Assembly (NCBI GenBank): GCA_028821405.1 | Contig: JAPPGK010000117.1 | Coordinates: forward strand, 7,398-71,397 | From: Gammaproteobacteria bacterium | Lineage (GTDB): Bacteria; Pseudomonadota; Gammaproteobacteria; Pseudomonadales; Azotimanducaceae | Direction: 5' to 3' | DNA: 64,000 nucleotides | Part shown: piece by piece, positions 11,654-62,886 of the stretch | How the letters are laid out: each line of letters begins with the position of its first letter | Numbering within the stretch: the stretch's first letter is position 1 | Made by a program: the position numbers and the translations under genes | The notes under the pieces: generated by a model | Seen by the model: the letters and a program-made list of their open reading frames with translations, nothing else | The model's database searches: none | Told to the model about the DNA's origin: nothing

Positions 11654-11656
11654 CTC

Positions 11657-14143
11657 ATGCGCATGATCCTCGACTTGAAGCAGGCGTCGCGAAGCTTGCG
11701 GCGGACGCCGGGCTTCACGGTGCTCGCGGCGCTCTGCATGAGTATCGGTCTCGGCGCCACCGCCGCCGTGTTCACCGTCGTCAAGCAGGTGCTGCTGGAT
11801 CCACTGGGCTACCCGGACGCCGATCGGCTCGTGGTCCTGCGCAGCGCGGTTCCCAAGTCCGGAATGGGCAGCGAGTGGGGATTCGCGTCCGCCCAGTACT
11901 TCCACCTGGGAGACAATGCCAAGTCCCTCGCCGACATCGGGGCTTCCCAGGACTTCCGGGCAAGCGTTGCCACGCCCGATGGGCTCACGGGTGCCCGGGT
12001 CACCCAGGCCACCGCCGGAATACACCGCCTGATCGGCGCGCAGGCCGTGCTCGGCCGGGTCTTTGAAGAGGCCGACGACGACCCCGGCGCCCGGCGGGTC
12101 GCCGTGCTCTCCTACGGGTACTGGCAGGACCGCTTCGGCGGCGATCCCGAAGTCGTGGGCAAAACCATCCGGTTCGATCCCGGCATCGTCGGCCGGGCCT
12201 TGACGGCGGAGGAACTGGCACAAATCGAGCACCGAATCGTCGGTGTCCTCGCGCCCGGAACAGGCATGTTCGACGTGGACCTGTGGATCCCATGGATTCT
12301 CGACCGGGCCGGCCCCCACTACAACCAACATGGGATGTTCGTGATGGCGAAGCTCGCAGACGGGGTCGGCATCGACGCGGCCCGCACCGAGCTCACGGGC
12401 TTGACGGCTCAATTGGTCGATGCCTATCCCGAGGTCTATTCACGGGGTTTCATCGAGCAGTTCGGGTTCCGCACGGTGGTTCACGACGCCAAGCGCTACC
12501 GGGTCGGGGCCTTTGCCGACCACCTTTGGCTGCTGCAGGCGGGTGCCGTGTTGTTGCTGATCGTCGCCTGGGGCGATGTGGCCAACCTGCTTCTGGCCCG
12601 GGCCGAAACCAGCCGCCGGGATCTCGCCGTGCGCACGGCGCTCGGGGCCGGGTGGCGCGACGCGGCCCGTCACCATGCTGCGCTAGGCCTGCTGCTGACA
12701 GTCCCGGCCGCCGCGCTGGGCGCGTTGATCGCGTGGGGGGCCATCAACTACCTTGTCGCCACGGCGCCTCTGCCGCTGCCCCGACTCGACGAGGTGGCGC
12801 TCGACGGCGGCGTATTTGCATTCCTTGCCGCCGTCTCCGCCATCGCCGCCGCAGGCTTGGCGGCGTTGCCGGCCTCGCGCGTGCGCCACTTCGGGCTTGA
12901 CTTGGCGGAGGCCGGGCGAGGCGCCACACACAGTCGCGAACGAACCCGGGTGCGCGCCGGGATGGTCGTCGGACAAGTCGCCCTAACGCTTGTGCTCATG
13001 GTCCTCGCCGGAGGGCTCGTCGAGAGCTTCCGGTCGCTGCGCAACGTCGATCCGGGTATCGATGCCGAGGCGGTGGTCAGTGTGGCCGTGACCCCGAACG
13101 CCTCCCATACGGACATCGCCACATGGTGGGCACTCGTCCGGGATACGCAGGACAGGCTCGAGTCGCTGCCCGGCGTCACGGCCGTTGGCGCGTCCTCGGC
13201 GGTGCCCCTCAATTGGTTCCCGGGCTGCGCGGCACAACAGTTCGACGATCCGGCCGTGTATGAACGCGTCGGCGCCTCCGACTTCACGACCTGCGCTTCG
13301 GTGCTGCTCACAACGCCCGGTTGGTTCCGAACGTTGGGAATCCCGATCATCGAGGGCCGTGGCTTCGAGATGGCGGACCTCACCGACCCCGGGCGCGGCG
13401 TTGTCGTCGTCAGCCGATCATTCGCCGACCGGTTCTGGCCCAACGAGAACGCCATCGGCAAACGCATTTCGGCATACGGCGGCCCTTGGTACACGATCGT
13501 CGGCGTGGTCGGCGACGTCTACGGCAAGTCCGTCGACGAACCGCCGGCGATCGCCGCCTACTACCCGCTGAACCCCGTTCCCGGCTCCCGCTGGCCGCAC
13601 TACGGCGTGGCGATGGCGGTGCGGACCGGGCTTGAAGATCCTGCCGCCATCCTGCCCGCTGTGCTCCGGGAATTCGAACACGTCGATCCGACGATGCAGG
13701 TCGAGGCCATGCCCACGCTGGCCGACATCGTGGGCCGCTCGATGGCGCCCGCGAGTTTCGCCTCCACAATGTTCATCGCGGTGGCGATCGGTGCGCTGGT
13801 GCTCGCCCTTGCCGGGCTCTATGGCGTGGTCTCCCACGTGGCTGCACGACGCACTACCGAGATCGGCGTACGCATGGCGCTGGGTGCTCGGCCGGACCAA
13901 GTCCGACGCATGGTGGTAGCGGGTGGGCTCAAGCCCGTCGTCCTAGGGGTCGTCTTGGGTGTCCCTATTGGCGTCATTGCTGCCGGAATGCTGCGCGGCT
14001 TGCTGTTCGGCGTCACCCCGGTGAGCCCCGCGGTCCATGTCACGGCGGCGGTATTGCTAGTGGCCGCAGGCACCTTGGCGACCTGGATAGCCGCGCGACG
14101 GGCGACGGCCATCCAGCCGCTCGCCGCCTTGCGGGTGGAGTAG
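11657..14143 (+). CDS. ADOP-type duplicated FtsX/MacB-like ABC permease, paralog 2
   Basis: 828 aa. SRSLRRTPGFTVLAALCMSIGLGATAAVFTVVKQVLLDPLGYPDADRLVVL. Second repeat ends TEIGVRMALGARPDQVRRMVV...ARRATAIQPLAALRVE. Confidence 0.88.
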   Translation: MRMILDLKQASRSLRRTPGFTVLAALCMSIGLGATAAVFTVVKQVLLDPLGYPDADRLVVLRSAVPKSGMGSEWGFASAQYFHLGDNAKSLADIGASQDFRASVATPDGLTGARVTQATAGIHRLIGAQAVLGRVFEEADDDPGARRVAVLSYGYWQDRFGGDPEVVGKTIRFDPGIVGRALTAEELAQIEHRIVGVLAPGTGMFDVDLWIPWILDRAGPHYNQHGMFVMAKLADGVGIDAARTELTGLTAQLVDAYPEVYSRGFIEQFGFRTVVHDAKRYRVGAFADHLWLLQAGAVLLLIVAWGDVANLLLARAETSRRDLAVRTALGAGWRDAARHHAALGLLLTVPAAALGALIAWGAINYLVATAPLPLPRLDEVALDGGVFAFLAAVSAIAAAGLAALPASRVRHFGLDLAEAGRGATHSRERTRVRAGMVVGQVALTLVLMVLAGGLVESFRSLRNVDPGIDAEAVVSVAVTPNASHTDIATWWALVRDTQDRLESLPGVTAVGASSAVPLNWFPGCAAQQFDDPAVYERVGASDFTTCASVLLTTPGWFRTLGIPIIEGRGFEMADLTDPGRGVVVVSRSFADRFWPNENAIGKRISAYGGPWYTIVGVVGDVYGKSVDEPPAIAAYYPLNPVPGSRWPHYGVAMAVRTGLEDPAAILPAVLREFEHVDPTMQVEAMPTLADIVGRSMAPASFASTMFIAVAIGALVLALAGLYGVVSHVAARRTTEIGVRMALGARPDQVRRMVVAGGLKPVVLGVVLGVPIGVIAAGMLRGLLFGVTPVSPAVHVTAAVLLVAAGTLATWIAARRATAIQPLAALRVE

Positions 14144-14337: not shown

Positions 14338-16317
14338 CTATGTCGTCGCCAGGGCCGCGACCGGATCGAGGCGCGATGCCCGGCGAGCGGGAACGATGCC
14401 GAATACGAGCCCGGTGGCGATTCCGCAGGCCAAGGCCACAGGCACGAACCAGGGGGCCAATGCCACCGGAGCATCGGCCAGCCAGACCAGGAAGGGTGTC
14501 GTCGCGAGACCCAGGAGGGTGCCAGCCCCGCCTCCGAGTGTGGTAGGCACGGCCGTCTCCGCGAGGAACTGTAGGGTGATGTCGCGCCGGCGGGCGCCCA
14601 CCGCCATCCGAATGCCGATCTCGCGCGTACGCTGGCTCACTGCGGCGAGGGTCACGCCCATGACCGCAAGACCGCCGGCCAGGAGCGAGACCCCTGCGAG
14701 GGCGCCGAGAATCGTCGCATGCAGATTCGAAAGCTCCATGTGGGCGGCCAGTTGCTCGGCGCGGTTCGTCAACGTATAGCCCTCGCGATCGTGCCGGCGA
14801 TTCATGAGATCGCGAACGTCCGCCGCCGTTTCGTCGATCCGCGACACGTCGTCAACGAATACCTGGATGAAGTTCAACTGGTCCGTGCCGTAGAGCACTT
14901 CGGCCCCGGTTCGGAACGGGATGAACACCACGGTTTCCTGCCACACCAGGCCTGACTCCGTGGTCGCAAACGCGACGCCCTCGCCTTCGCGGCCGGGGTG
15001 GGGGCCCAACACCCCCTTGACTTCGAAAGGCGTCCCATCCAGGAAGATCGTCGTGCCCAGGGCGTTCGCGTCCGTTCCGATCAGGCGGTCGCGTATCGGG
15101 CGTCCGATCACCGCGACCTGCGCGAGGCTGTCGTTGTCGCCCTCGGTAGGAAACGTACCTTGTTCGAGCGGCCACAATACGTTGTCGGTGGTCCGGGGTT
15201 CGGTGTGGATGACCGCCCTTACCATCACGTCGTCGATGCCTTGGCTGCCCGCGTTCACAGCGCTCCTTCGGTTCAGCACCGGTACGACGGACTGCACGTT
15301 GGCCACCTGTTCCGCGATGGCATGCGCGTCGGCCAAGGTCTGCGGAAACAACACGAACCGTTGTCCCGAAAACTCGTAGCCTCCCACGTTGAGCCGGTTC
15401 GCTCCCATTCGCTCGAGGATGCCCGCCGCATCGCGGTGGGCACCCTCCGCCAAGCCGAGCAGGGCCACGACGGACCACACCCCGACTGCGACGCTTGCAA
15501 CCGTCAGCGCGGCTGCCAGCCGGTGTGAGCGCATCCAGGTCCAACCGCCGCGCACGGCGGCCAGCCAAGGCATGGCACCGGGTTGTCCCACTCTTCCCGC
15601 AACGGATCCTTCCGACGCCTTCCCGGTACCGTCGTCCGAAACAACGCGCCCGTCGGCAAGTTCGATCCGACGCCGGGCCCGGGCCGCGACGGCAGCGTCG
15701 TGGGAGACCACGATGATCGCGTGGCCACGGTCGGCAAGTCGTTCGAGCAGGCCGAGAATCTTGTCTCGCTGGGCCGTGTCGACGGCGCCGGTCGGCTCGT
15801 CGGCCAGTATGACCTGGGCCCCGTTCATCAACGCGCGACCAATGGTGACGCGCTGCTGCTCCCCGCCCGACAACTCCGCAGGACGGTGGTCGACCCGGTC
15901 GCCAAGTCCGATGGCGCGCAGTATCTCGGCGGCGCGTCGCCGGCGTTGACGCCGGGGTTCGCCCGTATACGTTGCCGGCATTTCGACATTGTCACGCGCG
16001 GTGGCGGACTCGAGCAGATTGTAGTTCTGGAACACAAAACCGAAGGTCTCCCGCCGGCGCCGGGCCAGGTCGTCGGCACCCAAGGCGGTGACGTCCTCAC
16101 CCGCGACGCGATAGGCACCCGACGTCGGCTGGTCCAAGCAGCCGAGGATGTGCAGAAGCGTCGACTTGCCCGAACCCGATGGTCCTATGACGCAGACGAA
16201 CTCGCCGGCGTCGACCTCCAAGGTGACGTCCGCGAGGGCTTCGATCGCCGCCTCGCCGTCGTCGCCGTCGTCAAAGGCTCTCGACACCCCCTCGAGTTGC
16301 AAAAGCGCCGTGCTCAT
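14338..16317 (-). CDS. macB: MacB-type fused ABC ATPase-permease (NBD + periplasmic core domain + FtsX)
   Basis: GPSGSGKSTLL, LSGGEQQRVTIGRA and ILADEPTGAVD are followed by 4 TM with a large periplasmic loop (VAVIGRPIRDRLIG...FEVKGVLGPHP) and TREIGIRMAVGARRRDI. Start taken at ATG 16317 (MSTALLQLEGV). The track ORF extends to 16365. Confidence 0.9.
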   Translation of the reverse strand: MSTALLQLEGVSRAFDDGDDGEAAIEALADVTLEVDAGEFVCVIGPSGSGKSTLLHILGCLDQPTSGAYRVAGEDVTALGADDLARRRRETFGFVFQNYNLLESATARDNVEMPATYTGEPRRQRRRRAAEILRAIGLGDRVDHRPAELSGGEQQRVTIGRALMNGAQVILADEPTGAVDTAQRDKILGLLERLADRGHAIIVVSHDAAVAARARRRIELADGRVVSDDGTGKASEGSVAGRVGQPGAMPWLAAVRGGWTWMRSHRLAAALTVASVAVGVWSVVALLGLAEGAHRDAAGILERMGANRLNVGGYEFSGQRFVLFPQTLADAHAIAEQVANVQSVVPVLNRRSAVNAGSQGIDDVMVRAVIHTEPRTTDNVLWPLEQGTFPTEGDNDSLAQVAVIGRPIRDRLIGTDANALGTTIFLDGTPFEVKGVLGPHPGREGEGVAFATTESGLVWQETVVFIPFRTGAEVLYGTDQLNFIQVFVDDVSRIDETAADVRDLMNRRHDREGYTLTNRAEQLAAHMELSNLHATILGALAGVSLLAGGLAVMGVTLAAVSQRTREIGIRMAVGARRRDITLQFLAETAVPTTLGGGAGTLLGLATTPFLVWLADAPVALAPWFVPVALACGIATGLVFGIVPARRASRLDPVAALATT

Positions 16318-16513
16318 CGTTGGTCCCGCTTCACGAGAAGCCCCTCGGGGATGACCATTTATCACGACACCGTAACAATTCCAAGGTTGCCACGATAACC
16401 CGACTCACGAGCCACCACTCGCCGTCCTGCCGTGCAGCCGCCTGCCTCCACGCTCGGCTAGCGTTGGCGCGCGCGCCCGGCGCGGATGGCCACCCGGCCG
16501 CTTGCTACAGCTC

Positions 16514-17620
16514 CTAGGCAACCTGAAGACTCTGGGCGATTGACTTCCTGGCGACTCGACGCGCGGGCAACAAGGCGCCGATCAACCCGATCGCGCAGGC
16601 CCAGGCGATTCCAACGACAACGTGCTCGCCAGCGACGTCCAGACGCAACGTGAGATGGTTGGCGCTTGCGCCGGGGCCGAGGTACTGCGCGGCGGCGAAA
16701 ATGTTCCCGTCGGCGACGACCCAGGCGGTCAACGCCCCGAGGCACGCGCCAATGATCGCCAGCAACGTCGACTCTGCGAGAACGGAGACCATGATCGGGA
16801 TCGTCCCGAACCCGATGGCACGCAATGTCGCGACCTCCCGGGCTCGCGCATCCACGATCGAATAGGTCATGTTCAGGGCGCCGCATGTGGCGCCAAGCGC
16901 CATGATCGTGCCGACGACGTAGGCGATGATGAAGGCGAGCCGTGACATGGTCTCCGACTGACCTTCGTAGTAGTCGGACTCGCGCTCCGCCTTGAGGTTG
17001 GCGCCCCGGATAGCGGCGAGGGCGTCTCGAAATGCATCGAAGTCGTGGGCAGAGGAAAGCTGGACGGTCGCGGAACTGAATTCGTTTCGACCGATTCCCG
17101 CCATCAGCGTCGGACCATCCGCGAGCAGTTCCGACTCGTGCGCGTCGCCGCCGCTCTCGAAAACGCCGACGATTCGCCAGTCGACGGCGTTGACCGTCAG
17201 ATGGGCGCCCACCGTGACAGACGGCGCCGACCGCTGGACGAGGCGCCCGACCATCAGTTCGTGCTTGCCCTGGGCCACCCTCCTGCCCTCGACGACCGTC
17301 AGATTGGGCCGTAGTTCGAACCCCATCGCCGTAACTCCGCGCACCAGAACCAGACCGGGCACGTCCTCTAGCATGACGTTGACGAGCACTTCCGGCGATA
17401 CGGCGACTTCCCCGCCTTGACGCGCGACATACGGGAGATCCCGCAATCTCAAGACATCGTCCCGGCCGATCGAACTGAGCGATTCGACCACGGCGCCGTT
17501 CCTGAGCACCAGCGCTCGGTCGGGGTGCCCCGTCGTTCGGATGGCATCGGTCAAGCTGGTCGCGAGGGCGAGGCCCGTGACGAGGACCAGGACCACGCAA
17601 CCGATGCCGAGGGCAACCAC
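16514..17620 (-). CDS. FtsX/MacB-like ABC permease (no NBD); conserved coding continues upstream to the TAG at 17696..17698
   Basis: 368 aa from GTG. TM1, then a periplasmic domain, then 3 TM with REVATLRAIGFG...ARRVARKSIAQSLQVA. The 25 codons upstream (RTLVEILHITLVGLRGIPHRLGEST) look like the normal FtsX N-terminus. Confidence 0.8.
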   Translation of the reverse strand: MVALGIGCVVLVLVTGLALATSLTDAIRTTGHPDRALVLRNGAVVESLSSIGRDDVLRLRDLPYVARQGGEVAVSPEVLVNVMLEDVPGLVLVRGVTAMGFELRPNLTVVEGRRVAQGKHELMVGRLVQRSAPSVTVGAHLTVNAVDWRIVGVFESGGDAHESELLADGPTLMAGIGRNEFSSATVQLSSAHDFDAFRDALAAIRGANLKAERESDYYEGQSETMSRLAFIIAYVVGTIMALGATCGALNMTYSIVDARAREVATLRAIGFGTIPIMVSVLAESTLLAIIGACLGALTAWVVADGNIFAAAQYLGPGASANHLTLRLDVAGEHVVVGIAWACAIGLIGALLPARRVARKSIAQSLQVA

Positions 17621-17695: not shown

Positions 17696-18856
17696 CTATC
17701 TCCCGGCGATGGCCTGCGTCACCGACAGTCTTCGAAGGTGGATGATCGGCCACAGGGAGATCAGGCCGGACAAGCCGATTGCGAATGCAAGACCGCTCGC
17801 GTACACGCCGAGGGGCAAGGGCAGTACCGGGCCGCCGACGAACTCGTAGATCACCGGTAGCGAGAGTGCGCCAACGACCAGTCCCACGGCCGCACCGCCG
17901 AGGCAGACGGGGGACGACTCGGCAAGGATCGTCATCGCGATCGCGCCGTCCCCGAAACCCATGGCTTTCAGGATGCCGAATTCCGGTGTGCGCGCCTTGG
18001 CGGCCTGGACCATCATCGTGCCGGTCAGGAACAGCAGCGAGAAGAACACGGCCCCGACGACCAGCTCGACAAACAGACGGAGATCTTCGATCTGGCTGAG
18101 CTGCGAGGAGACCCATTGCTTCTCGCTCAGCGTGCGGGTCTGGTGCGGCGAGTTGCTGAACAGTTCGTCGATGGCGCTCGCCACCGTGGCAGCCCGCGTC
18201 GGATCGTCCAGGGCGACGATGAAATGCTGCACGGTATCCTTCTGGGCCGTTCGGGACTCGTTCAAGTACCTGTAGTCGAAGAACAGACCGTCCGCGTAGA
18301 GCTTGTCGTCGTCGGGGCCGCTGTTGGCGATGGCGAGCACCTCGAACGTCCAGGTTTCGTTGCTTTGGTTGTTGATCCAGAAGGCCGACTTGATTGGAAC
18401 GCGATCCCCCAGCCGCCAGCCAAACCGGTTCGCGGTCGAACTTCCCACGACCGCGCCGCTTCTGGAGGCCAGTACACGATCGAGCTGATCCGGCGGCACC
18501 CTCATCTCCGCAATCACATCCAGGAACTCCACGAGGTCGACGCCGGCGGAACTCACCGGCTGGTTCAGATCTTGGTAGTACCCTCCCAACAAGGTCGCGT
18601 GGGTGACTTTCCGAACGTTCTCCACCGTCGACAACCGAGCCCCGTATGCGATTGGCAGCGGCTCGAGCGGCCCGGTTCGATTCAGAACCCGGAGTCTTGT
18701 GTCGCCAAGTCGATCGAGTGCCCCATCGAACCCGGAGACGACGCCATTGAGAACCGCATAGAGCACGAACGCCGCGAAGGTGGCGAACAGCGTTAGAGCC
18801 CACCGCAGCGGGCGCCGGAACGTATTGCCGACGGCAAGCCTAACGGGGACGGACAG
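17696..18856 (-). CDS. FtsX/MacB-like ABC permease (no NBD), probable non-canonical CTG start
   Basis: The track ORF starts at GTG 18766, inside TM1. The upstream in-frame sequence LSVPVRLAVGNTFRRPLRWALTLFATFAAF is the canonical FtsX N-terminus. AAGGAGG at 18868..18862 lies 5 nt before CTG 18856. An in-frame TAG sits just upstream. Confidence 0.75.
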   Translation of the reverse strand: MSVPVRLAVGNTFRRPLRWALTLFATFAAFVLYAVLNGVVSGFDGALDRLGDTRLRVLNRTGPLEPLPIAYGARLSTVENVRKVTHATLLGGYYQDLNQPVSSAGVDLVEFLDVIAEMRVPPDQLDRVLASRSGAVVGSSTANRFGWRLGDRVPIKSAFWINNQSNETWTFEVLAIANSGPDDDKLYADGLFFDYRYLNESRTAQKDTVQHFIVALDDPTRAATVASAIDELFSNSPHQTRTLSEKQWVSSQLSQIEDLRLFVELVVGAVFFSLLFLTGTMMVQAAKARTPEFGILKAMGFGDGAIAMTILAESSPVCLGGAAVGLVVGALSLPVIYEFVGGPVLPLPLGVYASGLAFAIGLSGLISLWPIIHLRRLSVTQAIAGR

Positions 18857-19200: not shown

Positions 19201-20580
19201 ATGGATCGAGCGGTCCCCCGGGTTCTATTCGCCGACGACGATGCGGATGTAGTCGAGGCCCTGCGGATGTTGCTGGGGAACGCCGGCTTCGAAACCGAGG
19301 GCGTGCGGTCGCCAAGCGCCACGCTTGACGCCGTGGCACGCTTCGACCCGGACTGCGTGCTCATCGACATGAACTACACGCGGGACACGACCTCGGGACG
19401 GGAGGGGCTCGACCTCCTTGCCAGCCTTCGCAGACTCGACCCGGCGTTGCCCGTCGTGGTCATGACCGCATGGGGCAACGTCGAGGGCGCGGTCGAGGCG
19501 ATGCGCGGCGGTGCACGGGACTACGTGCAGAAACCCTGGGACAACGAACGCCTTGTCCGAACGGTTGCTACGCAGGTCGAACTTGGGCGGGCGCAGCGGC
19601 GGGGCCACCGGCTCGCCGGTGCCAACCGGTATCTGAATTCCGCCGCGCTGAAGGACTTCGTGGCGGAGTCGCCCGCCATGCGCTCGGTCGTGGAACTGAT
19701 GGACCGGGTCGGGCCGTCCGATGCCAACGTGCTGATCAGCGGCGAACACGGCACCGGCAAGGAAGTCGTTGCGCACTATCTCCACGAAGCATCGGCCCGG
19801 GCCGGCGAATCCTTCGTCGCCGTGAACGCGGGCGGTTTCGCGGAAGGGGTGTTCGAGTCCGAGATGCTGGGCCACGTCAAGGGCGCCTTCACGGATGCGA
19901 GGTCGGATCGGCCCGGGTGTTTCGAACTGGCGGACCGGGGCACGCTCTTCCTGGACGAGATCGCCAATGTTCCCTATCGCCAACAAGCGGTGCTGCTGCG
20001 CGTCCTCGAGACGCAACTCGTGCAGCGCGTCGGGTCGCCGAAGACGCGAAGGGTGAACGCACGCGTCCTTTCCGCCACCAATGCCGACATCGACGCAGCC
20101 GTGGCACAAGGCACGTTCCGTGAAGACCTCCTCTACCGGCTGAACACGGTCGAGATCCGACTGCCGCCATTGCGCGACCGGCGCGAGGACATTCCGATTC
20201 TCGCAACGCGATTCCTGGCTAGGGAGGCGATCCGCTACGACAAGCCACTCGACGCCTTCACCGACGACGCCCTGGCGACATTGCTCGCCCATCCCTGGCC
20301 GGGCAACGTCCGCCAACTCATGCATGCCGTCGAACGGGCAGTGCTGGTGTCCAACGGAACGAAGATCGCAGGCGACGACTTGGGGCTGCGTCCGGCGGCT
20401 TCCCCACCGCGTTTCCTCGATTCGTTGACGCTCGCCGAAGCCGAGCGGACTCTCGTGGCGAAGGCTCTGGACCGACACGCCGGCAACATCTCCAAAGCCG
20501 CTCGCGATCTCGGCGTCAGCCGCGCGGCTCTCTACCGGAAGCTCGAACGGCATCGGATCCCCCTTCGCGATGGGAAGTAG
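19201..20580 (+). CDS. Sigma54-dependent NtrC-family response regulator (REC + AAA+ + Fis HTH)
   Basis: 459 aa. REC domain (VLFADDDADV...DCVLIDMNY), AAA+ domain with GEHGTGKE and GAFTDA (GAFTGA-like sigma54 contact loop), C-terminal HTH NISKAARDLGVSRAALYRKL. Confidence 0.93.
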   Translation: MDRAVPRVLFADDDADVVEALRMLLGNAGFETEGVRSPSATLDAVARFDPDCVLIDMNYTRDTTSGREGLDLLASLRRLDPALPVVVMTAWGNVEGAVEAMRGGARDYVQKPWDNERLVRTVATQVELGRAQRRGHRLAGANRYLNSAALKDFVAESPAMRSVVELMDRVGPSDANVLISGEHGTGKEVVAHYLHEASARAGESFVAVNAGGFAEGVFESEMLGHVKGAFTDARSDRPGCFELADRGTLFLDEIANVPYRQQAVLLRVLETQLVQRVGSPKTRRVNARVLSATNADIDAAVAQGTFREDLLYRLNTVEIRLPPLRDRREDIPILATRFLAREAIRYDKPLDAFTDDALATLLAHPWPGNVRQLMHAVERAVLVSNGTKIAGDDLGLRPAASPPRFLDSLTLAEAERTLVAKALDRHAGNISKAARDLGVSRAALYRKLERHRIPLRDGK

Positions 20581-21904
20581 CGGCAGACGGCGAACCCACT
20601 CGGCGCTTCCCTGGGTGCTTCTCGCCGGCGCGCCAGGCGTCGGGACCGCCATCGTCCTGTTGTGGATCGCGGACTACGGCACCGCCGTTCGCTGGTCCGT
20701 CACATTGGGCCTCGCCGGCGCGTGGATCGTGCTCGGACTCGTTTTGAAGACGCGCCTGCACCGGCCGCTGCGCATCGTCGCGAACCTCTTGGCAGCAGTG
20801 CGACAAGGCGACTACTCCGTGCGCGCTCGCGGTGCCGGTACGAACAACCCGTTGGCCCTGACGCTCCACGAGGTCAATGCATTGGAGGAGTTGCTGCGCA
20901 GGGAGCGGCTCGATGCCGCAGAGGCGTCCGGCTCGCTGCAGCATGTGCTTGACGCCGTGGGCATGGCGGTGTTCGCATTCGACGATGAGCGACGCCTGCA
21001 TCTTGTGAACCGCGCTGGCGAACACCTTATCGGGCTGGCCGAACGCGACGCGACGGGACAGGCGGCCGCAGACATCGGGCTTCACGAGACCCTCACCGGT
21101 AGGGCCCCTCGAACCATCGAGCGCAGCGACCCGACCGGCGTCCGGCGCTGGCAGGTTCGACGCAGCGCCATTCGTCTGGCCGGGAAGCGCCTGACCCTGG
21201 TCGTCCTAACCGACCTCTCCAGCGCCCTGCGCGAAGAAGAGCGGGAAACTTGGCGACGCCTCGTCCGGGTTCTGAGCCACGAGATCAACAATTCCCTGAC
21301 CCCGATCAAGTCGATCGTGGCGAGCATCCGCGCCCTCCTGCGTCGGGATCCGCTGCCGGCCGATTGGTCGAGCGACGTTGAACGCGGACTCGAGATCGTC
21401 TCGGGGCGCGCCGAGGGTCTGGAGCGGTTCATGTCCGCCTATGCCCGCCTGGCGCGGTTGCCGCCTCCCAACCTCGTTGAGTGCGACTTGGCTGACTGCA
21501 TCCAACGGGTTGCGAAACTCGAGACGCGCATGACCGTGGCCGTTCAGGAAGGGCCTGGCGTATCGGTGCGAGCCGACCCCGATCAACTCGAGCAGGCGCT
21601 GCTGAATCTCGTCCGCAACGCTGCCGACGCGGCATTGCAGACCGGCGGCGGGGTCGCGGTTCGCTGGCAAAAAATCGACGAACACCTCGAGATTCTCGTC
21701 GAGGACGAAGGCCCCGGCATCGCCGAGACGGACAACCTGTTCGTGCCCTTCTATTCCACCAAGGCCGACGGCGCCGGCATCGGCCTGGTGCTTGCCCGGC
21801 ACATCGCCGAGAGCCACGACGGCGCGTTGGACCTGGTCAACCGCTCGGCCGTCCGCGGCGCCCGAGCAAGCCTCAGGCTGCCTGTGGCAACGCATGAGTC
21901 GTAG
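20570..21904 (+). CDS. Sensor histidine kinase (2 TM, HAMP, HisKA, HATPase_c)
   Basis: 444 aa. H-box VLSHEINNSLTPI, N-box LLNLVRNAADA, G-boxes VEDEGPGI and GAGIGL. Overlaps the response-regulator stop by 11 nt. Confidence 0.9.
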   Translation: MGSSGRRRTHSALPWVLLAGAPGVGTAIVLLWIADYGTAVRWSVTLGLAGAWIVLGLVLKTRLHRPLRIVANLLAAVRQGDYSVRARGAGTNNPLALTLHEVNALEELLRRERLDAAEASGSLQHVLDAVGMAVFAFDDERRLHLVNRAGEHLIGLAERDATGQAAADIGLHETLTGRAPRTIERSDPTGVRRWQVRRSAIRLAGKRLTLVVLTDLSSALREEERETWRRLVRVLSHEINNSLTPIKSIVASIRALLRRDPLPADWSSDVERGLEIVSGRAEGLERFMSAYARLARLPPPNLVECDLADCIQRVAKLETRMTVAVQEGPGVSVRADPDQLEQALLNLVRNAADAALQTGGGVAVRWQKIDEHLEILVEDEGPGIAETDNLFVPFYSTKADGAGIGLVLARHIAESHDGALDLVNRSAVRGARASLRLPVATHES

Positions 21905-39249: not shown

Positions 39250-39252
39250 GCG

Positions 39253-55305: not shown

Positions 55306-57312
55306 CTAGTCGGCGAGCGCCACGCTGGGCTCAAGCCTCGCCGCTCGAACCGCTGCCACGATGCCCGATGCGAGGCCCGTTGCGACGGCGAGTCCAATGG
55401 CCGCCGGCCAGAACCACGGCGCAAACGAGGTCGGCATGTCGAGCGCGGCACCAACCGCGGGACCGACCGTGAATCCCAAAATGGTGCCAGCGGTCCCGCC
55501 TACCAAGGCCACGGTGCCGGACTCGAACAGGAACTGCCAGACAATGTCGCGGCGGCGGGCGCCCACCGCCCGCCGGATGCCGATCTCACGGGTACGCTGG
55601 CTGACCGAGGCCAGCATCACCGCCATCACGCCAAGTCCGCTGACGATCAGCGCGACGGCACCGATGCCGGCCAGCACCGCGTAGCGCTGACGGGTTGTTT
55701 GGCGGTTGACATCCAGCAAGCTCCGATGCAGCTGCATTTGGAACCCCTCCCTGCCGTGGCGACGCATGAGCAGGTCTCGGATGTCGTCAGCGGTTTCCTG
55801 GACCCTCGCGGCGTTGTGCGCGAAAACGTCGATCGACAGCCGCGCGTCAGGCGGGAACAGCATCGCTTCGGCCGTCCCGAACGGAACGTAGACGACTGTG
55901 CTCATCATAGCGGCCCGATCCGGCGTGTAGTTCGGCCCCGTCATGATCGGATGCGGTGCGAGAACCCCCTTGACCGTGAGGGGGAGGCCGTCGAGCAGCA
56001 GGGTTTCGCCGATTGGGTCCGCCCCCGGCGGGAAGAGGCGTTCTCGCAGACCGGGTCCGATCACGGCGACATGCCGCCGGTATTCGTCGTCCTGCACGCT
56101 CAGGAAGGTGCCCAGTCCGACGGGCCACTCTTCGTACATGAACTCGGGCTGGGAGTCGGTCGCGTCCGCATGCACGCCTGCTTCGACGTTCCGCGTCCCG
56201 TATTGAGCAGTGGCTTTGCGGTAGAGCGACGGCACCGTTGTCCGGACGTTCGGCACCTCGGCCTCGATGGCGCGGGCGTCGGCGACCGCCAAAAGAACGG
56301 GTTCGATGTCGGCTTGCTGAAGACGGTTGTCCTCGAACACGTACCCTGGGCTCTGGACGACCGTGATCCGGTCCAAACCCGCCCGACCGATGGCCTGCTG
56401 AATCGCGACGTAGGTGCCTTGCGCGAAGCCGAGCGCGGTGGTCACCGAAACGATGCCGATGGCGATGCTCAGCGTGCTCAAGGCCGAATGCACCACGCCG
56501 CCTTTGAGCGCTCCGAGGGCCTGTCGAACAGCTGCCCGGAGACTCCCGAGTGGCCCGGCGGCGGCAACGGCGGATTGGGGTGCAATCGCGACGTCGCCTG
56601 CGGGCGGGGTCGGGGTGCCCGTATCGGCTACGATGCGCCCATCCCGCAGTTCGACGTGCCTCGTCGCGTAGGCGGCGACCGCCGGGTCGTGGGAGACGAC
56701 GACCACCGTCTGGCCGCCTGCCGAGAGATTCCTCAGCAGCGTCATGATCTCGTCGCTTTGCTTCGAGTCGAGTGCGCCGGTCGGTTCGTCGGCAAGCAAC
56801 ACCTTCCCGCTGTTCATGAGCGCGCGGGCGATGGCAACGCGTTGCTGCTCGCCCCCGGACAGCTCGCCGGGACGATGGTCGATGCGTGACCCGACGCCTA
56901 GCGAGTCAAGAAGCTCGACCGCACGGCCCCGATCCAACCTCCCGATGTTGGTGTAGGCCGCGGGCAACTCGACGTTCTGGCGTGCGGTCGCGTGCTTGAG
57001 CAGGTTGAAGGATTGGAACGCGAACCCGAAGGTTGCCAAGCGTATGGCGGCAAGCCCAGCGTCGTCCAAGCGGGCGATGTCGTTCCCCGCGAACCGGTAG
57101 GTGCCGCTGGTGGGTCGATCAAGGCAACCGATGATGTTGAGCAGGGTGGACTTGCCTGAACCCGATGCGCCGGTGACGCAAACGAACTCGCCTTGATCGA
57201 TCTGCAGCGATAGCCCGTCGAGGGCGCGGACACGATCACCGCCTTCGTGCTCGAAATCGCGGGTGATGCCCTCCAGCTTGATCAGCGCCCGGGGGGAGGC
57301 GTCTTCGGACAT
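55306..57312 (-). CDS. macB: MacB-type fused ABC ATPase-permease, paralog 2
   Basis: 668 aa. GASGSGKSTLL, LSGGEQQRVAIARA and [11 protein letters not shown]. Periplasmic core (VAVIGPGLRERLFPPGADPIGETLLLDGLPLTVKGVLAPHP) and FtsX (TREIGIRRAVGARRRDI). Confidence 0.92.
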   Translation of the reverse strand: MSEDASPRALIKLEGITRDFEHEGGDRVRALDGLSLQIDQGEFVCVTGASGSGKSTLLNIIGCLDRPTSGTYRFAGNDIARLDDAGLAAIRLATFGFAFQSFNLLKHATARQNVELPAAYTNIGRLDRGRAVELLDSLGVGSRIDHRPGELSGGEQQRVAIARALMNSGKVLLADEPTGALDSKQSDEIMTLLRNLSAGGQTVVVVSHDPAVAAYATRHVELRDGRIVADTGTPTPPAGDVAIAPQSAVAAAGPLGSLRAAVRQALGALKGGVVHSALSTLSIAIGIVSVTTALGFAQGTYVAIQQAIGRAGLDRITVVQSPGYVFEDNRLQQADIEPVLLAVADARAIEAEVPNVRTTVPSLYRKATAQYGTRNVEAGVHADATDSQPEFMYEEWPVGLGTFLSVQDDEYRRHVAVIGPGLRERLFPPGADPIGETLLLDGLPLTVKGVLAPHPIMTGPNYTPDRAAMMSTVVYVPFGTAEAMLFPPDARLSIDVFAHNAARVQETADDIRDLLMRRHGREGFQMQLHRSLLDVNRQTTRQRYAVLAGIGAVALIVSGLGVMAVMLASVSQRTREIGIRRAVGARRRDIVWQFLFESGTVALVGGTAGTILGFTVGPAVGAALDMPTSFAPWFWPAAIGLAVATGLASGIVAAVRAARLEPSVALAD

Positions 57313-57366
57313 GATTCGGCCCTACTTGGTGGAGTCCACGGGGTAGTGTGCGCGAATGTCCATGAT

Positions 57367-57401
57367 TGCATAATATTGTGCATTGTGCTTACAGTTGTGC
57401 A
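57367..57401. promoter_or_regulatory. Candidate BlaI/MecI/CopY-type operator in the divergent macB-blaI intergenic region
   Basis: AT-rich patch containing TGCATAATATTGTGCA (14/16 palindrome, 57367..57382), three TTGTGC(A/T) repeats, and TACAGTTGTG (57390..57399), which matches 9/10 of the TACAnnTGTA box. Confidence 0.5.
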
Positions 57402-57427
57402 TCCATTCGCTCTTCGGCGGAGTCGAA

Positions 57428-57814
57428 ATGAAATCCCGAAGAAAACTTGCACGGCGTGAGCAGGAGGCGTTGGAGGCGCTGCACCGCCTCGCTCCCTGTA
57501 CCGCGGCGATACTCCAAGGCGAGATTGGCGGTACCTATTCGGGCACGCGCGCGGTGCTCTCTCGCCTGGTGGCCAAAGGGTTGGCGAGCCACCGCTACGA
57601 CGGACCGCGCTATGTCTACGAACCGGTCCAGGATTCGTCGTCCGCTGGCAGGTACGCGCTGCGCGAGGTCGTGGACACGTTCTTCAAGGGCAGCAACATG
57701 GAGGCGCTCGGTGCGCTTCTGGGGATGTCCAAGGAGGTTGTCGACGAGGCCGAGCTGAAAGAGCTCGAAGCGATGCTCGCGTCCATTCGGGGACGGTCGG
57801 ACACCGATGCTTGA
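57428..57814 (+). CDS. BlaI/MecI/CopY-family winged-helix transcriptional repressor
   Basis: 128 aa from ATG 57428. EQEALEALHRLAPCTAAILQGEIGG...SGTRAVLSRLVAKGLASHRYDGPRYVYEP fits the penicillinase-repressor fold pattern. Overlaps the downstream M56 gene by 8 nt. Confidence 0.82.
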   Translation: MKSRRKLARREQEALEALHRLAPCTAAILQGEIGGTYSGTRAVLSRLVAKGLASHRYDGPRYVYEPVQDSSSAGRYALREVVDTFFKGSNMEALGALLGMSKEVVDEAELKELEAMLASIRGRSDTDA

Positions 57815-59498
57815 GAGCGTCGTCGCGTTCCTGGTCAAGTCGACGGTCGTACTCGCCTTGGGCCTGTGGGCCTGTTCCCTGAAGCGCCTTTCCGCGGCAG
57901 AACGCCACGCGGTGGCGGGAACCGGGTTGGTCGCCGTGGCGGTCCTCGCGGTGCTGGCGTGTCTCACGGAACAGCCTCGGATTCCTGCGTGGACGTTCGT
58001 ATTGCCCGTGGAGAACGTCGGTCTCGGTCCTGTATCAGCGCCACCGCCGATGCCGGATGCGGTGAAACAGGCCGATCCCGCTACCGCAGCGATGGCGGTG
58101 CCGCCGGAGATTCCCGCAAGGGCTGGCAACTGGTGGGTCTTGGGATTGGGGATCTACGCGGCGACCGTTGTTGCCCTGGGCGTCTCGATGCTGGCCGGTC
58201 GACGGCGCGTGGCGAACTACGTTCGACAGTTGCCCGTATGGCCCGGGCCCGCCCTCGTGCCGGACCATGTCGATGTGCGCGTCGACGGGCTCGGCACCCC
58301 CTGGACGTGGGGGCATCGGCACCCGGTCATGGTGCTGCCCGTTGACTTCGAGACGTGGCCCCGCGAGCGCCGGCAAGCCGTGCTCGCGCATGAACTGAGC
58401 CACATCCAACGCCGAGATTGCCTGACCGATGGCATATCCCGATGGCTGTGCAACGTATTCTGGTTCCACCCGATGATGTGGATGCTGTGGTCGCGCCAGC
58501 GAAGGTACGCCGAGGAAGCCTGCGACGACGCGGCGCTCGCGACGGGCACCGACCCCTGCGAGTATGCCGCAGCCCTGCTGGCGGTGGCGCGCCGCAACCG
58601 GGACGCGAAGCCGATGGGGCTCTCGGTCAGCCGCAGTGACCTGTCCAACCGGTTACGGTCGATACTCCTTTCGGGAGCGAGGCGTACCCGGATGACATCC
58701 GCCAAGCGCTGTTTGTTGATCGTGTCGGCAACGGCACTCGTACTACCGATCGGCGCGAGCACCGTCGCCACGACGGGCATCGGGGATTCGGATCTACATG
58801 GCGGGCCCCAGTCGATCCGCGAGCTCCGCCGCGAGATCATTGTCGTTCTCCGATACCCGCGGCTTCATGGTCCGACCGTTGAAGACGCGGAGGAAATCGC
58901 CAAACAGGTAGCCAACGTCACGCACGCCTCGCCGTACTACTCATCCCACATTAGCGTCTTTGTCGCTCGGAACGGGGATCGGGAAGCCCCAATGGTCGTC
59001 ATTGCCCAGGAGGATCTGAGTCCAAGGGCCGAAACGTCGGCCGGAGCGGTGTGGCCACTCGAAGAAGGCCACCGCCTCTCGGCGAGCGACGACCTCAACG
59101 GCGAGCGGGTGGCGGTGATCGGTGGTCCCATACGCGATGCGCTGTTCGGACACGGCGCGAACGCCATTGGCGAGGAAGTCGTCATCGGTGGTGAACCGTT
59201 TCGAGTCAAGGGTGTGCTGGCGCCCCACCCGCCGTTCGTGAATGTCGATACACCGTATCCCGAACACATGGCGAGCGCCTTGGCGAAGCGCGTGTACGTG
59301 CCTTTTGGGCTCGGCGTCAAGCTGTTCTTCGAGGGCAGGCGTCCTAGCTACCTTCGGGTGGCCGTCGACGATCAGCAACGTATCCACGAGACGGCTGCCG
59401 AGATCCGCGAACTGCTCGAAGGCCGCTATGGCCATGCCGCCGGCGTGTTGACGGAAACGCTGACCATGCCACCGCCGGACTCAACGCGAAGCAGTTGA
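57807..59498 (+). CDS. BlaR1-like M56 zinc-metalloprotease signal transducer with a C-terminal MacB-type periplasmic core domain
   Basis: 563 aa. N-terminal TMs, HELSH (HExxH) within AVLAHELSHIQRRDC, a further TM (CLLIVSATALVLPIG), then about 230 aa with VAVIGGPIRDALFGHGANAIGEEVVIGGEPFRVKGVLAPHPP. This closely parallels the periplasmic domains of the three MacB paralogs in the window. Confidence 0.85.
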   Translation: MLESVVAFLVKSTVVLALGLWACSLKRLSAAERHAVAGTGLVAVAVLAVLACLTEQPRIPAWTFVLPVENVGLGPVSAPPPMPDAVKQADPATAAMAVPPEIPARAGNWWVLGLGIYAATVVALGVSMLAGRRRVANYVRQLPVWPGPALVPDHVDVRVDGLGTPWTWGHRHPVMVLPVDFETWPRERRQAVLAHELSHIQRRDCLTDGISRWLCNVFWFHPMMWMLWSRQRRYAEEACDDAALATGTDPCEYAAALLAVARRNRDAKPMGLSVSRSDLSNRLRSILLSGARRTRMTSAKRCLLIVSATALVLPIGASTVATTGIGDSDLHGGPQSIRELRREIIVVLRYPRLHGPTVEDAEEIAKQVANVTHASPYYSSHISVFVARNGDREAPMVVIAQEDLSPRAETSAGAVWPLEEGHRLSASDDLNGERVAVIGGPIRDALFGHGANAIGEEVVIGGEPFRVKGVLAPHPPFVNVDTPYPEHMASALAKRVYVPFGLGVKLFFEGRRPSYLRVAVDDQQRIHETAAEIRELLEGRYGHAAGVLTETLTMPPPDSTRSS

Positions 59499-59599
59499 CC
59501 GATCTCGCCTCGGAAGCGACATGCCTAGCGTGCAACGCTAACCTATTGCGTCGGGAATATGGATTGGATGCGTGACACAGCACCACGGGGATTGATCAC

Positions 59600-61597
59600 G
59601 TGGCCGCCGCCGAACCGCCGCTGATCGAACTTGCCGGTGTCGGCCGGGTGTACCGCCGTGCGGGAGCGCGGGGTCGGGGGGTCGCCACCCGGGCGCTGTC
59701 CGACGTGTCGCTGCGCATCGAACGTGGCGAGTTCGTCGCCGTCATGGGCCCTTCGGGGTCCGGCAAGTCGACGCTCATGAACATCCTCGGCTGCCTCGAC
59801 CGGCCGACCGTGGGGGCGTACCGGTTCCGGGGCCGGGATGTCGGCCGGTTGCGCGCGGACGAACTGGCTGCGCTGCGCCGGGAGTCGTTCGGCTTCGTAT
59901 TCCAGTCCTACAACCTGATCGGCTCGGCGACGGCGCGGGAGAACGTCGAACTGCCGGCGGCCTATGCCGGCCTCCGGCGCATGCATCGCGCGGATCGGGC
60001 GGAACGGCTGCTCGGCGCTTTCGGCCTAGGCGCCCGCCTCAGGCACCAGCCGCGGGCGATGTCCGGCGGCGAGCAGCAGCGCGTGGCCATCGCCCGGGCG
60101 CTGATGAACGGCGGCCGGGTGATCCTCGCGGACGAGCCGACAGGCGCGCTCGACTCGAAGAACGGGGAGGACGTGCTGGGCGTTCTCGCCGATCTGGCCG
60201 CGAGCGGCCACACCGTCGTCGTCATCACCCACGACCCCGAGGTTGCGGCCTGGGCGGAACGCCGCATCGAGTTGCTGGATGGACGCGTGGTCGCCGACCG
60301 GAAGACGCCCGTCCGTCAGCGGACCGGGGCGGGAGGCAGGATCGTACGCGGCGAAGGCATACCGGCGGCCAGCGCGGGTCAGCCGTCGTCGCTCGCCAGC
60401 GCCGCGGAGTGGCTTCAGAGCACGTTCGCCTCGCTGCGGGCCAACCTGCTGCGCGGCAGCCGGCTGCGTACCGCGCTGACAGTGCTCAGCGTAACGGTCG
60501 GGGTGTGGTCGGTGGTGGCAATGCTGAGCGTTGTGCAGGGCGGCTACCAGGCGGGCGTGGACGCGGTCAGCCGGGCCGGTGCCGATGCGATGTCGATCCG
60601 CCCCGGTGTGCCGTTCACGGATCGTCGATCGACGCCGGTTCGGCTCACCGTGGCCGACGCCGAGGCGATTGCCGGATTGGACAACGTACGCGGCGTGCTG
60701 CCCAATCTCATCGGCCAGGGGACATTGCGCCGAGGCGACCGGCAGACCGAGGCCACCGTGAGCGCCACCACCCCGGACGAGCTCGCGATCCACGGCTGGA
60801 CGCTGGCGCGCGGCGTATTCCTCTCCGAACGCGACAGCATTGGCAATGAACCCGTGGTCGTCATCGGCGCGGGAATCCGGGACGAACTGTTCCCGACCGA
60901 CGCCGCCGTCGACGAACCCATCCTTATCGACGGAACGCCTTTTCTGGTCAAGGGCGTGCTAATGCGATTCGCGAGGCGTGGCAGCGTCGCTGTGGACTAT
61001 CGCGACAGAAAGGTCCTGGTGCCGCTCGGCACCGCCCAAGCGCTGCTCTTCGGTCGCAAGCACCTCGACTCCATCACGGTCTACGCGACCGATCCCAAAA
61101 GGCTCGGCGAGACTGCGCGCGCGGTGGACGACCTGCTCGCCCGCCGCCACGGCCACCGCGGATTCATGATGGACACCGACATCGGACTGCGGATCGGGTT
61201 CACGACGGTGGAGCGGCTGCTGTCGGCGCTGATCGGCGCCGTGGGTGCCATCTCGCTGTTCGTGGGCGGCATGGGGGTGACCTCGGTGATGCTGGTGTCG
61301 GTCGCCGAGCGCACCCGCGAAATCGGTATCCGCATGGCGACCGGGGCCCGGCGGCGTGACATCCTGCGCCAGTTCCTGCTGGAGGCGGTGGCAGTCACCT
61401 TCGCGGGCGGCGTGCTCGGGACCGTGTTGGGATTCGCGAGCCGGTTCGTGTTCGAGGCCTTCAACGTGCCGGCGGGCCTATCGCCTTGGTTCGTGTTCGC
61501 GGCCCTAGGTTGCGCCGTGGCTACGGGACTCGCTGCGGGCATCGTGCCCGCCCGCCGGGCAGCGGGGCTCGACCCGGTGGCTGCGTTGGCGCGTTAG
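59600..61597 (+). CDS. macB: MacB-type fused ABC ATPase-permease, paralog 3
   Basis: 665 aa, GTG start. GPSGSGKSTLM, MSGGEQQRVAIARA and ILADEPTGALD. Periplasmic core (VVVIGAGIRDELFPTDAAVDEPILIDGTPFLVKGVL) and FtsX (TREIGIRMATGARRRDI). Confidence 0.92.
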   Translation: MAAAEPPLIELAGVGRVYRRAGARGRGVATRALSDVSLRIERGEFVAVMGPSGSGKSTLMNILGCLDRPTVGAYRFRGRDVGRLRADELAALRRESFGFVFQSYNLIGSATARENVELPAAYAGLRRMHRADRAERLLGAFGLGARLRHQPRAMSGGEQQRVAIARALMNGGRVILADEPTGALDSKNGEDVLGVLADLAASGHTVVVITHDPEVAAWAERRIELLDGRVVADRKTPVRQRTGAGGRIVRGEGIPAASAGQPSSLASAAEWLQSTFASLRANLLRGSRLRTALTVLSVTVGVWSVVAMLSVVQGGYQAGVDAVSRAGADAMSIRPGVPFTDRRSTPVRLTVADAEAIAGLDNVRGVLPNLIGQGTLRRGDRQTEATVSATTPDELAIHGWTLARGVFLSERDSIGNEPVVVIGAGIRDELFPTDAAVDEPILIDGTPFLVKGVLMRFARRGSVAVDYRDRKVLVPLGTAQALLFGRKHLDSITVYATDPKRLGETARAVDDLLARRHGHRGFMMDTDIGLRIGFTTVERLLSALIGAVGAISLFVGGMGVTSVMLVSVAERTREIGIRMATGARRRDILRQFLLEAVAVTFAGGVLGTVLGFASRFVFEAFNVPAGLSPWFVFAALGCAVATGLAAGIVPARRAAGLDPVAALAR

Positions 61598-62855: not shown

Positions 62856-62886
62856 GCAGTGAACGTTACGAGTATTTTGAATGAGT

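Follow-up and report, generated by a model that had tools for sequence, protein, structure and literature searches.

A BlaR1-type M56 protease carrying a MacB-type periplasmic domain, encoded with a BlaI-like repressor beside macB genes in uncultured Gammaproteobacteria

The window analysed here is a 64-kb stretch of DNA (64,000 nucleotides; contig JAPPGK010000117.1) from an uncultured gammaproteobacterium. It carries a compact unit in which a gene for a BlaI-like repressor is followed by one for a 563-amino-acid (aa) protein joining a BlaR1-type M56 zinc protease to a MacB-type periplasmic core domain (PCD), this pair being bracketed by two macB genes. The original prediction, made by eye, had proposed that such a protein uses a copy of the pump's own substrate-facing domain to detect the pump's substrate, or to dock onto the pump, and then cleaves BlaI to derepress the exporters. 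The features of the unit are as follows, TM denoting a transmembrane helix.

57807..59498 (+), M56/PCD sensor gene, 563 aa (six-frame open reading frame [ORF] list)
57807..58697 (+), M56 module (aa 1-297): TM1-TM3, disordered periplasmic loop and cytoplasmic gluzincin domain (PF05569)
58698..58826 (+), TM4 (aa 298-316) and flexible linker (aa 317-340) tethering the PCD (AlphaFold2 [AF2] model, alignment)
58827..59468 (+), periplasmic sensor domain, a complete MacB-type PCD (aa 341-554; PF12704, AF2, Foldseek)
57428..57814 (+), blaI-like gene, 128 aa from the ATG at 57428, Penicillinase_R winged-helix family
57366..57401, putative BlaI operator: two tandem 16-bp near-palindromic boxes with a 3-bp spacer
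57367-57382, box 1, TGCATAATATTGTGCA
57386-57401, box 2, TGCTTACAGTTGTGCA
55306..57312 (-), MacB-A, 668 aa, ABC_tran + MacB_PCD + FtsX (Pfam), divergent from blaI
59600..61597 (+), MacB-B, 665 aa, ABC_tran + MacB_PCD + FtsX (Pfam), downstream of the sensor gene

Pfam assigns two domains to the 563-aa protein: Peptidase_M56 (PF05569) at residues 161-284 (E 1e-20) and MacB_PCD (PF12704) at residues 317-536, the latter spanning model positions 13-207 of 207 with E 7.6e-20 and 72.5 bits against a gathering cut-off of 27 bits. No other fold was assigned to the C-terminal region, for which MacB_PCD had been anticipated. NCBIfam returns a weak blaR1_generic match in the N-terminal half and an ADOP match in the C-terminal half. 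The penicillin-binding domain PF00905 has no match at E <= 0.1, and Pfam finds neither ABC_tran nor FtsX. The protein is thus a BlaR-like M56 member but no β-lactam sensor, because its C-terminal domain is MacB_PCD and PF00905 is absent; nor is it a MacB transporter, since it lacks both the ATPase and the FtsX domain. The public label "ABC transporter permease" is misleading for the same reasons, and because the PCD is C-terminal with no following TM.

The protease half retains the features expected of its family. The HELSH zinc site occupies residues 195-199 (58389-58403), a further ligand is E236, and the gluzincin residues H195, E196, H199 and E236 are invariant across 18 aligned orthologues. 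Foldseek relates this half to cryo-electron microscopy structures of Staphylococcus aureus BlaR1 (8exp_A, E 3.7e-5; 8exr_B, E 1.9e-3), and the BlaR1/M56 layout that had been read from the sequence by eye is thereby borne out. The full-length AF2 model (mean predicted local distance difference test [pLDDT] score 62) has helices at residues 2-23, 30-53, 109-141 and 298-316, a disordered, Pro/Ala-rich periplasmic loop at residues 54-108, and a linker at about 315-340 with pLDDT below 50, which falls in variable columns of the 18-orthologue alignment. In the same alignment, the positive-inside rule is respected by Arg/Lys clusters that follow TM1 and TM3 and precede TM4. Model and alignment point to a four-TM topology in which the protease domain would lie between TM3 and TM4 and the input domain outside, after TM4. 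No TM helix is modelled C-terminal to the PCD; the protein ends after the aa 341-554 domain, which is rich in beta-alpha-beta elements.

A domain-only AF2 model of the PCD (24-row alignment) has a pLDDT of 87.4 and a predicted template modelling score (pTM) of 0.71. In Foldseek it matches YknZ (5f9q, E 4.6e-14) and MacB (3ftj, 5lil, 5gko, 5c59 and 5nik, E 1e-13 to 1e-10), with TM-scores of 0.44-0.59 to the YknZ and MacB PCDs; the best 17 PDB matches are all MacB-type extracytoplasmic domains (MacB, YknZ and S. pneumoniae 5xu1), followed by LolC and LolE. The C-terminal half of the full-length model likewise finds the YknZ and MacB periplasmic domains (E 3e-11 to 1e-7). Assigned by eye, the secondary-structure order runs from the Porter N-terminal half through Sabre to the Porter C-terminal half, which indicates that the sensor PCD is complete. 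In BLASTP, the C-terminal 247 aa are 40% identical to MacB-A over 132 aa (E 1e-22), 35% to MacB-B over 187 aa (E 3e-18) and 36% over 197 aa (E 9e-31) to a third fused MacB of the window, MacB-C (14338..16365). The peptide strings originally quoted for the by-eye alignment are present, and these E values put the likeness far beyond chance. The loop motifs WPLExG and GVLxPHP are common to the sensor, MacB-A and MacB-C. Profile and structure searches thus agree with the original assignment of a MacB-type, and not a penicillin-binding, sensor fold.

Both halves of the gene are maintained. Nei-Gojobori ratios of nonsynonymous to synonymous substitution (dN/dS) between the window gene and three orthologues are 0.16-0.33 for the M56 part, 0.41-0.47 for TM4 and linker, and 0.26-0.39 for the PCD, and the values for the M56 part and the PCD mean that both are under purifying selection.

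Repressor gene, operator candidate and macB neighbourhood

Pfam places the BlaI-like ORF in Penicillinase_R (PF03965), with E 2.2e-14 and coverage of model positions 3-114 of 115. It scores far below the cut-offs of the NCBIfam equivalogs CopY and BlaI, which makes it a distant member of the family, and is 90% identical (tblastn) to its counterpart in L002, one of the related loci compared below. The mechanically called ORF, 57383..57814 (+), starts at a TTG (57383) that falls in the spacer between the two boxes, so the true start is almost certainly the ATG at 57428, with GGAG about 6 nt upstream. The blaI stop and the M56/PCD start overlap by 8 nt; this overlap had been noted from the outset, as had the bracketing of the pair by fused macB genes, for both of which Pfam recovers all three domains.

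The tandem boxes 5' of blaI form a putative BlaI operator. Their consensus, TGCACAATATTGTGCA, is a perfect palindrome, and the block is AT-rich within a genome of 65% G+C. The same two boxes with the same spacing stand 5' of blaI in all five orthologous loci (the window, L001, L002, L003 and L018), and a five-way alignment places nearly all invariant columns inside the 36-bp block, the rest of the spacer being unconserved. No further copies of the block occur in the window or the related loci. As the degenerate box pattern alone is not rare, with a single match arising by chance in 30 of 100 window shuffles, the evidence for an operator is its conservation between loci and not the match in one window. 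The boxes overlap a weak -35 element (TTGCAT, 57366-57371) and a -10 element (TACAGT, 57390-57395), both picked out by eye. A paralogous BlaI/M56-TPR locus (L009, 9540-9590) has a similar but sequence-distinct two-box block (TTGCACTCTCTTGAACA taa TGCTTAAATATGTGCA), a difference that suggests paralogue-specific operators.

Linkage of the M56/PCD gene to macB genes holds in five of five orthologous loci, each of which also keeps the adjacent upstream Penicillinase_R gene and its overlap with the M56 gene. The conserved order is blaI-M56/PCD-macB, extended in some loci by genes for a membrane fusion protein (MFP), an outer membrane efflux protein (OEP) and a further macB. MFP, OEP and additional macB paralogues belong to the cluster in L001, L002 and L003, and a divergent upstream macB is found in the window, L002 and L018. 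The gap between the sensor gene and macB is 10-23 bp in L001, L003 and L018 and 101 bp in the window, where no terminator-like site lies between 59498 and 59600; in L002, an inserted Uma2 gene separates the sensor gene from the downstream macB block.

Both flanking MacBs match NCBIfam MacB (PRK10535) below its equivalog cut-off, MacB-A with 441 bits against 966. As to MacAB-TolC-type membership, both have the order nucleotide-binding domain-PCD-FtsX; at the window locus, neither the MFP nor the OEP gene found downstream in L001, L002 and L003 is present. MacB-A is orthologous to the upstream divergent macB of L002 (84% aa identity, tblastn) and of L018, and MacB-B to macB3, the post-OEP gene of L002 (89%, tblastn). 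The window is collinear with the 88%-identical L002 locus (blastn) over 54408-59507 (L002 6622-11703) and again over 59599-61593 (L002 19697-21694). The spacer between sensor gene and MacB-B, 59499-59599, thus corresponds to L002 11704-19696, and within it a short remnant marks two deletions:

59511..59579, 69 bp, remnant of the ancestral macB2-MFP spacer, 87% identical to L002 16877-16945 (blastn)

Relative to L002, the window is without the second Uma2 gene (Uma2b), macB1 and macB2, and without MFP and OEP. By sequence comparison the window locus is a deletion derivative of an L002-type operon. Either MacB-A and MacB-B depend on adaptors whose genes are elsewhere, or the unit is partly disabled in this genome.

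Relatives and ancestry of the sensor domain

The original prediction called for a survey of the M56 plus MacB_PCD architecture, and this architecture (PF05569+PF12704) was found in nineteen 90%-identity clusters that share 52-100% identity. Of these, eighteen have the full length of 547-564 aa, and the remaining one is a partial sequence of 417 aa. The sources are metagenomes and metagenome-assembled genomes labelled "Gammaproteobacteria bacterium", with some copies on contigs of 2.5-5.1 Mb, and the family forms one 50%-identity cluster confined to uncultured marine/sponge-type Gammaproteobacteria. A profile was searched against 1.84 billion representatives clustered at 50% identity; among the best 150 of about 35,570 matches (E <= 1e-10) there was a single full-length M56/PCD representative, and no other M56 protein had a PCD. 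The fusion is therefore rare and lineage-restricted, with the proviso that more divergent M56+PCD fusions may lie beyond those best 150. A scan of GTDB genomes with short back-translated patterns gave, among the matches listed, only distant M56 genes of other phyla.

A general rule that such sensors copy their neighbour does not hold. The closest M56 paralogue, P0021, has a TPR-like C-terminus and lies beside a thioredoxin-like gene, and P0051 is an M56 protein fused to MFP domains with no pump adjacent. At L010 (412-6326), one blaI is followed by three M56 genes in a row, of which two have DUF3738 sensors; the third carries MFP domains (barrel-sandwich plus beta-barrel of the resistance-nodulation-division [RND]/MFP type), i.e., an efflux-pump part that is not beside a pump.

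The closest relatives of the sensor domain are solo PCD proteins (P0060-P0069 and P0207-P0215). These are 205-288 aa long, match the PCD part only (180-240 bits in the profile search) and are complete, with an N-terminal signal peptide or lipobox (P0061, ...LSVSGC; P0210, ...LSVAGC). The motifs WPLExG and GVLxPHPPF are common to them and the sensor. They too are publicly annotated as "ABC transporter permease", so that our analysis corrects a systematic mis-annotation of both M56/PCD and solo PCD proteins. In L011, L013, L014/L015, L016 and L017, their genes immediately precede or adjoin fused macB genes, i.e., they take the position held by the 3' half of the sensor gene:

L011 526-1272, solo PCD gene
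L013 10001-10696, solo PCD gene
L014 2786-3547, solo PCD gene, between the OEP and macB genes
L016 10001-11083, solo PCD gene
L017 2992-3708, solo PCD gene

Up to four paralogues occur on one 4.74-Mb contig; the word-indexed PCD-profile searches returned 16-18 proteins and were not an exhaustive survey. The solo proteins share with the sensor its place directly upstream of macB and differ in that a signal peptide or lipobox replaces M56, with no adjacent blaI and no operator boxes.

A neighbour-joining tree (200 bootstraps, scored as split supports) was built with transporter PCDs from the window and six related loci. Sensor and solo PCDs together split from all transporter PCDs in 200 of 200 bootstraps; the solo PCDs alone were monophyletic in none of the 200, and the sensors thus branch from within the solo group. 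Identity of the window sensor is 38-49% to solo PCDs versus 25-34% to pump PCDs. The idea that the sensor is a copy of the pump's own domain is accordingly sound for the fold and sub-family but not as a recent event, given the low identity and separate clade, and the phylogeny that had been asked of this domain derives it not from the neighbouring pump but from among stand-alone secreted PCDs.

Among paralogues of the M56 module, the closest (about 50% identity) have a TPR-like C-terminus, and TonB_C is found in more distant ones. The simplest history would be that a lineage-specific M56 module was fused to a resident solo secreted PCD gene already directly upstream of macB, TM4 replacing the signal peptide of the solo protein. 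Our literature searches, which targeted the M56-PCD fusion, found no description of the solo family, and the solo secreted PCD clade is an additional finding, previously unremarked within those searches. It shows that a PCD can exist as an independent periplasmic module, a point of relevance to partner recruitment by type VII ABC systems. In a recent structure, the lipoprotein YbjP is bound to MacAB-TolC (9qgy; PMC13082787), which demonstrates that such pumps can carry accessory lipoproteins, and by analogy offers some precedent for solo PCD lipoproteins as pump partners.

Beside the solo-PCD/macB loci are genes for small secreted peptides of 74-78 aa, with a signal peptide and conserved Cys residues (2-3 in the mature part):

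L012 737-973 (-), small Cys-peptide gene, product 65% identical to that of L016
L013 8719-8943 (-), small Cys-peptide gene
L014 2559-2783 (+), small Cys-peptide gene
L016 8219-8455 (-), small Cys-peptide gene

A search of the window and L001-L015, leaving out L018 and also L016, where they were first seen, found them at solo-PCD loci only and none in the window. The enterotoxin STII is a MacAB cargo, and these peptides may be pump cargo as well.

Regulatory interpretation and its rivals

We propose a BlaI/BlaR-type proteolytic derepression switch at the head of a MacB tripartite-pump operon. The BlaI-like repressor would bind the two tandem boxes over the blaI promoter and thereby repress blaI, the sensor gene and the macB genes transcribed with them, probably along with the divergent MacB-A gene. 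The four-TM M56 zinc protease would hold its MacB-type PCD in the periplasm on a flexible tether; binding of a periplasmic cue to the PCD would activate the cytoplasmic protease, BlaI would be cleaved and the operon expressed. The preferred cue would be pump cargo, or cargo piling up when pump capacity is short. We infer DNA binding and cleavage of BlaI, macB co-transcription and the identity of the cue. Control of the macB cluster by BlaI and the M56 protein is, in our judgement, likely, and its regulatory logic is well supported by synteny. Cargo as the input is proposed only tentatively, with somewhat less than even confidence, and the whole chain, cargo sensing included, is offered with that same reserve. 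Efflux pumps are commonly induced by their own substrates, which argues for cargo sensing, as do the shared loop motifs, which suggest a partner common to the sensor, MacB-A and MacB-C. The homology of the sensor to a domain of the proteins it would regulate narrows the candidate inputs to cargo, adaptor or the pump itself.

Several observations weigh against this proposal. On the side of the repressor, a strict sigma-70 scan finds no promoter in the blaI upstream region, leaving the by-eye elements; the Asn-Phe cleavage site of S. aureus BlaI is not visibly conserved in a by-eye alignment; and against PDB sequences the window BlaI has a marginal match only (E 0.84). As to the targets, the displaced macB block of L002 has no operator copy in front of it, and at 1e-5 tblastn finds no orthologue of the L002 MFP or OEP in the 64-kb window, so that the local pumps may be incomplete. 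For the input, a single PCD is not known to bind small ligands unaided, and the substrate cavity of MacB lies between two PCDs and MacA. The host is, moreover, uncultured, and the circuit rests on computation.

The strongest rival retains the BlaI/M56 circuit but has the PCD dock on the pump, at the membrane-proximal ring of MacA/MFP or at the MacB PCD, as a sensor of flux, occupancy or assembly. Outside transport, the extracytoplasmic domains of type VII ABC proteins serve in most documented cases for protein-protein contacts (MacB-MacA, LolC-LolA, FtsX-EnvC/PcsB), and the solo relatives are encoded inside pump clusters, even between OEP and macB in L014. Anchoring within the PCD clade varies (soluble, lipoprotein, M56-tethered), a flexible linker precedes the domain here, and the loop motifs that recur in MacB-A and MacB-C could mark places where the MFP makes contact. 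The title of entry 8exp describes S. aureus BlaR1 as a C2-symmetric dimer, so two sensor PCDs could mimic the periplasmic dimer of MacB. Docking fits less well with a sensor that stayed intact in the window despite loss of the MFP and OEP genes of the locus, and whose identity to pump PCDs is so low. We regard docking as possible but rather unlikely; the data do not discriminate between it and cargo sensing. More improbable still is that the PCD only positions the protease at the pump or has some accessory role, whichever the solo PCD proteins have, with the signal entering elsewhere (membrane stress, or the 55-aa periplasmic loop) or with M56 acting on a substrate other than BlaI. Many M56 proteins that have no recognisable sensor nonetheless pair with BlaI-like repressors (PMC13492132; PvmSR preprint), and solo PCDs occur without any protease; yet the fusion is conserved, with its PCD under purifying selection among orthologues of 52-88% identity, the blaI-M56 overlap is kept in every locus examined, and in the well-studied BlaR1/MecR1 proteins the C-terminal extracytoplasmic domain is the input domain.

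The deletions at the window locus raise a further rival, namely that the unit is a decaying remnant with no working inducible pump since macB1-macB2 and MFP-OEP were removed. Besides the missing MFP and OEP orthologues and the 69-bp spacer residue, the mobile-type Uma2 and DUF4143 genes that flank the unit could be cited for this, as could the highest PCD dN/dS value (0.39), which is that of the window-L002 pair. We hold it to be very improbable, however, in that all four ORFs are intact and retain their catalytic and Walker motifs, the operator boxes have survived, other parts of the window encode an adaptor of the HlyD family and many further type VII permeases, and MFP and OEP genes may sit elsewhere in the genome. 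An assembly or gene-calling artefact, e.g., an M56 gene and a truncated macB run together by a frameshift, has nothing in its favour and is effectively refuted: the nineteen clusters come from independent metagenomes, eighteen being full length with no frame breaks, the fusion is present on the megabase-scale contigs, and the sensor PCD is phylogenetically distinct from transporter PCDs.

Set against known systems, the proposed BlaI/M56 circuit is close to BlaR1/MecR1-BlaI/MecI of Staphylococcus and Bacillus licheniformis. Alike are the four-TM protein with a cytoplasmic M56 HExxH and Glu, the extracytoplasmic C-terminal input after TM4, the Penicillinase_R gene in the same operon and the two dyad operators at an autoregulated promoter (here putative). 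The input, in contrast, is a MacB PCD and not a penicillin-binding/class D β-lactamase fold, blaI precedes the protease gene, the putative targets are ABC efflux pumps and not β-lactamase or PBP2a, and the host is a diderm gammaproteobacterium. The putative operator here is TGCACAATATTGTGCA-like, whereas those of the BlaR1/MecR1 systems are of the TACA/TGTA type.

BlaR-like proteins with other sensors are already known to be common. Of approximately 15,000 M56 proteins, spread over 254 domain architectures, only about 6% have the penicillin-binding domain as sensor, and in about 96% of cases a BlaI-like repressor is encoded no more than 5 genes away (PMC13492132). The architectures with at least 100 entries in that survey include none, TonB_C, TP, M23, Plug, CarbopepD_reg_2, DUF4825 and Amidase_3; MacB_PCD is absent from them, although the smaller ones among the 254 may include it. 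For the atypical BlaIR systems of Clostridioides difficile, Pseudomonas aeruginosa and mycobacteria the signals are not known (PMC13492132; PvmSR preprint). Our protein resembles the atypical group, in which the sensor domain is of another kind or missing (CenIR of C. difficile, PvmSR of P. aeruginosa, mycobacterial BlaIR, M56-TonB_C and M56-M23, among others), in pairing M56 with a non-penicillin C-terminus and a linked BlaI-like repressor, and differs in that its sensor is homologous to a domain of next-door proteins, an unusually explicit hint as to the input. The MacB-PCD input is what is new: a literature search for BlaR1/M56 together with MacB or MacB_PCD returned no description of the fusion, and our findings suggest a pump-linked on-switch not previously described within the literature searched.

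With MacB and other type VII ABC proteins (MacAB-TolC, YknXYZ, LolCDE, FtsEX), the sensor shares the PCD fold with Porter and Sabre, and with the neighbouring MacBs the loop motifs, but it has neither the ATPase nor the FtsX four-helix bundle. The MacB PCD is held between two stalk helices, while that of the sensor is C-terminal and hangs from a single flexible tether of low conservation, which rules out mechanotransmission of the MacB kind. The comparison with BceAB-BceRS of Bacillus subtilis, raised by the original prediction as flux sensing, is a functional analogy only. Both concepts would use a type VII ABC extracytoplasmic domain as input for transporter expression; there, however, sensing is done by the transporter, which forms a complex with a histidine kinase and in this way signals to it, whereas here the PCD is a separate one, covalently joined to a site-specific protease, and the proposed output is repressor cleavage. 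Neither a histidine kinase nor a response regulator is encoded within the unit or beside it in the window or L001-L003; the sigma-54 regulator/kinase pair at 19201..21904 is 35 kb away.

A broader and more doubtful reading is that solo PCDs, together with the M56 fusion derived from them, make up a so far unnoticed accessory layer of MacB-type tripartite pumps, in which a free PCD would bind cargo (possibly the small Cys-peptides) or the MacA ring, and in which one lineage wired it to a BlaR-type protease such that pump load derepresses the pump operon. If true, this would be a one-protein, protease-based counterpart of transporter-coupled flux sensing. The induction and cargo of MacB pumps in environmental bacteria, and the signals of most BlaR-like M56 systems, are largely unexplained. 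The significance of the unit is tempered by M56 domain shuffling being already known as rampant, by hosts that are uncultured and by a local copy that has lost its adaptor and outer-membrane genes.

Other features of the window

The unit is flanked by a Uma2-family endonuclease gene (54276-55142, minus strand) and a DUF4143/AAA_14 ATPase gene (61737-62891, minus strand). At the end of the window Uma2 gene, a 21-bp unit is repeated in tandem, so that AETRASA is encoded four times; in L002 there are two copies of Uma2, of which one is inserted between the sensor gene and macB1. A second type VII ABC cluster, which includes MacB-C, occupies 7027-18803:

7027..8415, an unrelated HlyD adaptor
8448..9143, ABC ATPase
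to 11653 and 11657..14143, two duplicated PCD+FtsX permeases
14338..16365 (-), MacB-C, fused
16514..17620 and 17696..18766 (-), two further PCD+FtsX ORFs in different frames

The last two ORFs may represent one frameshifted duplicated permease or two genes. Elsewhere, the stretch 38001-40000 has a G+C content of 0.576 compared with 0.63-0.69 in the rest of the window, and may be a foreign insert.

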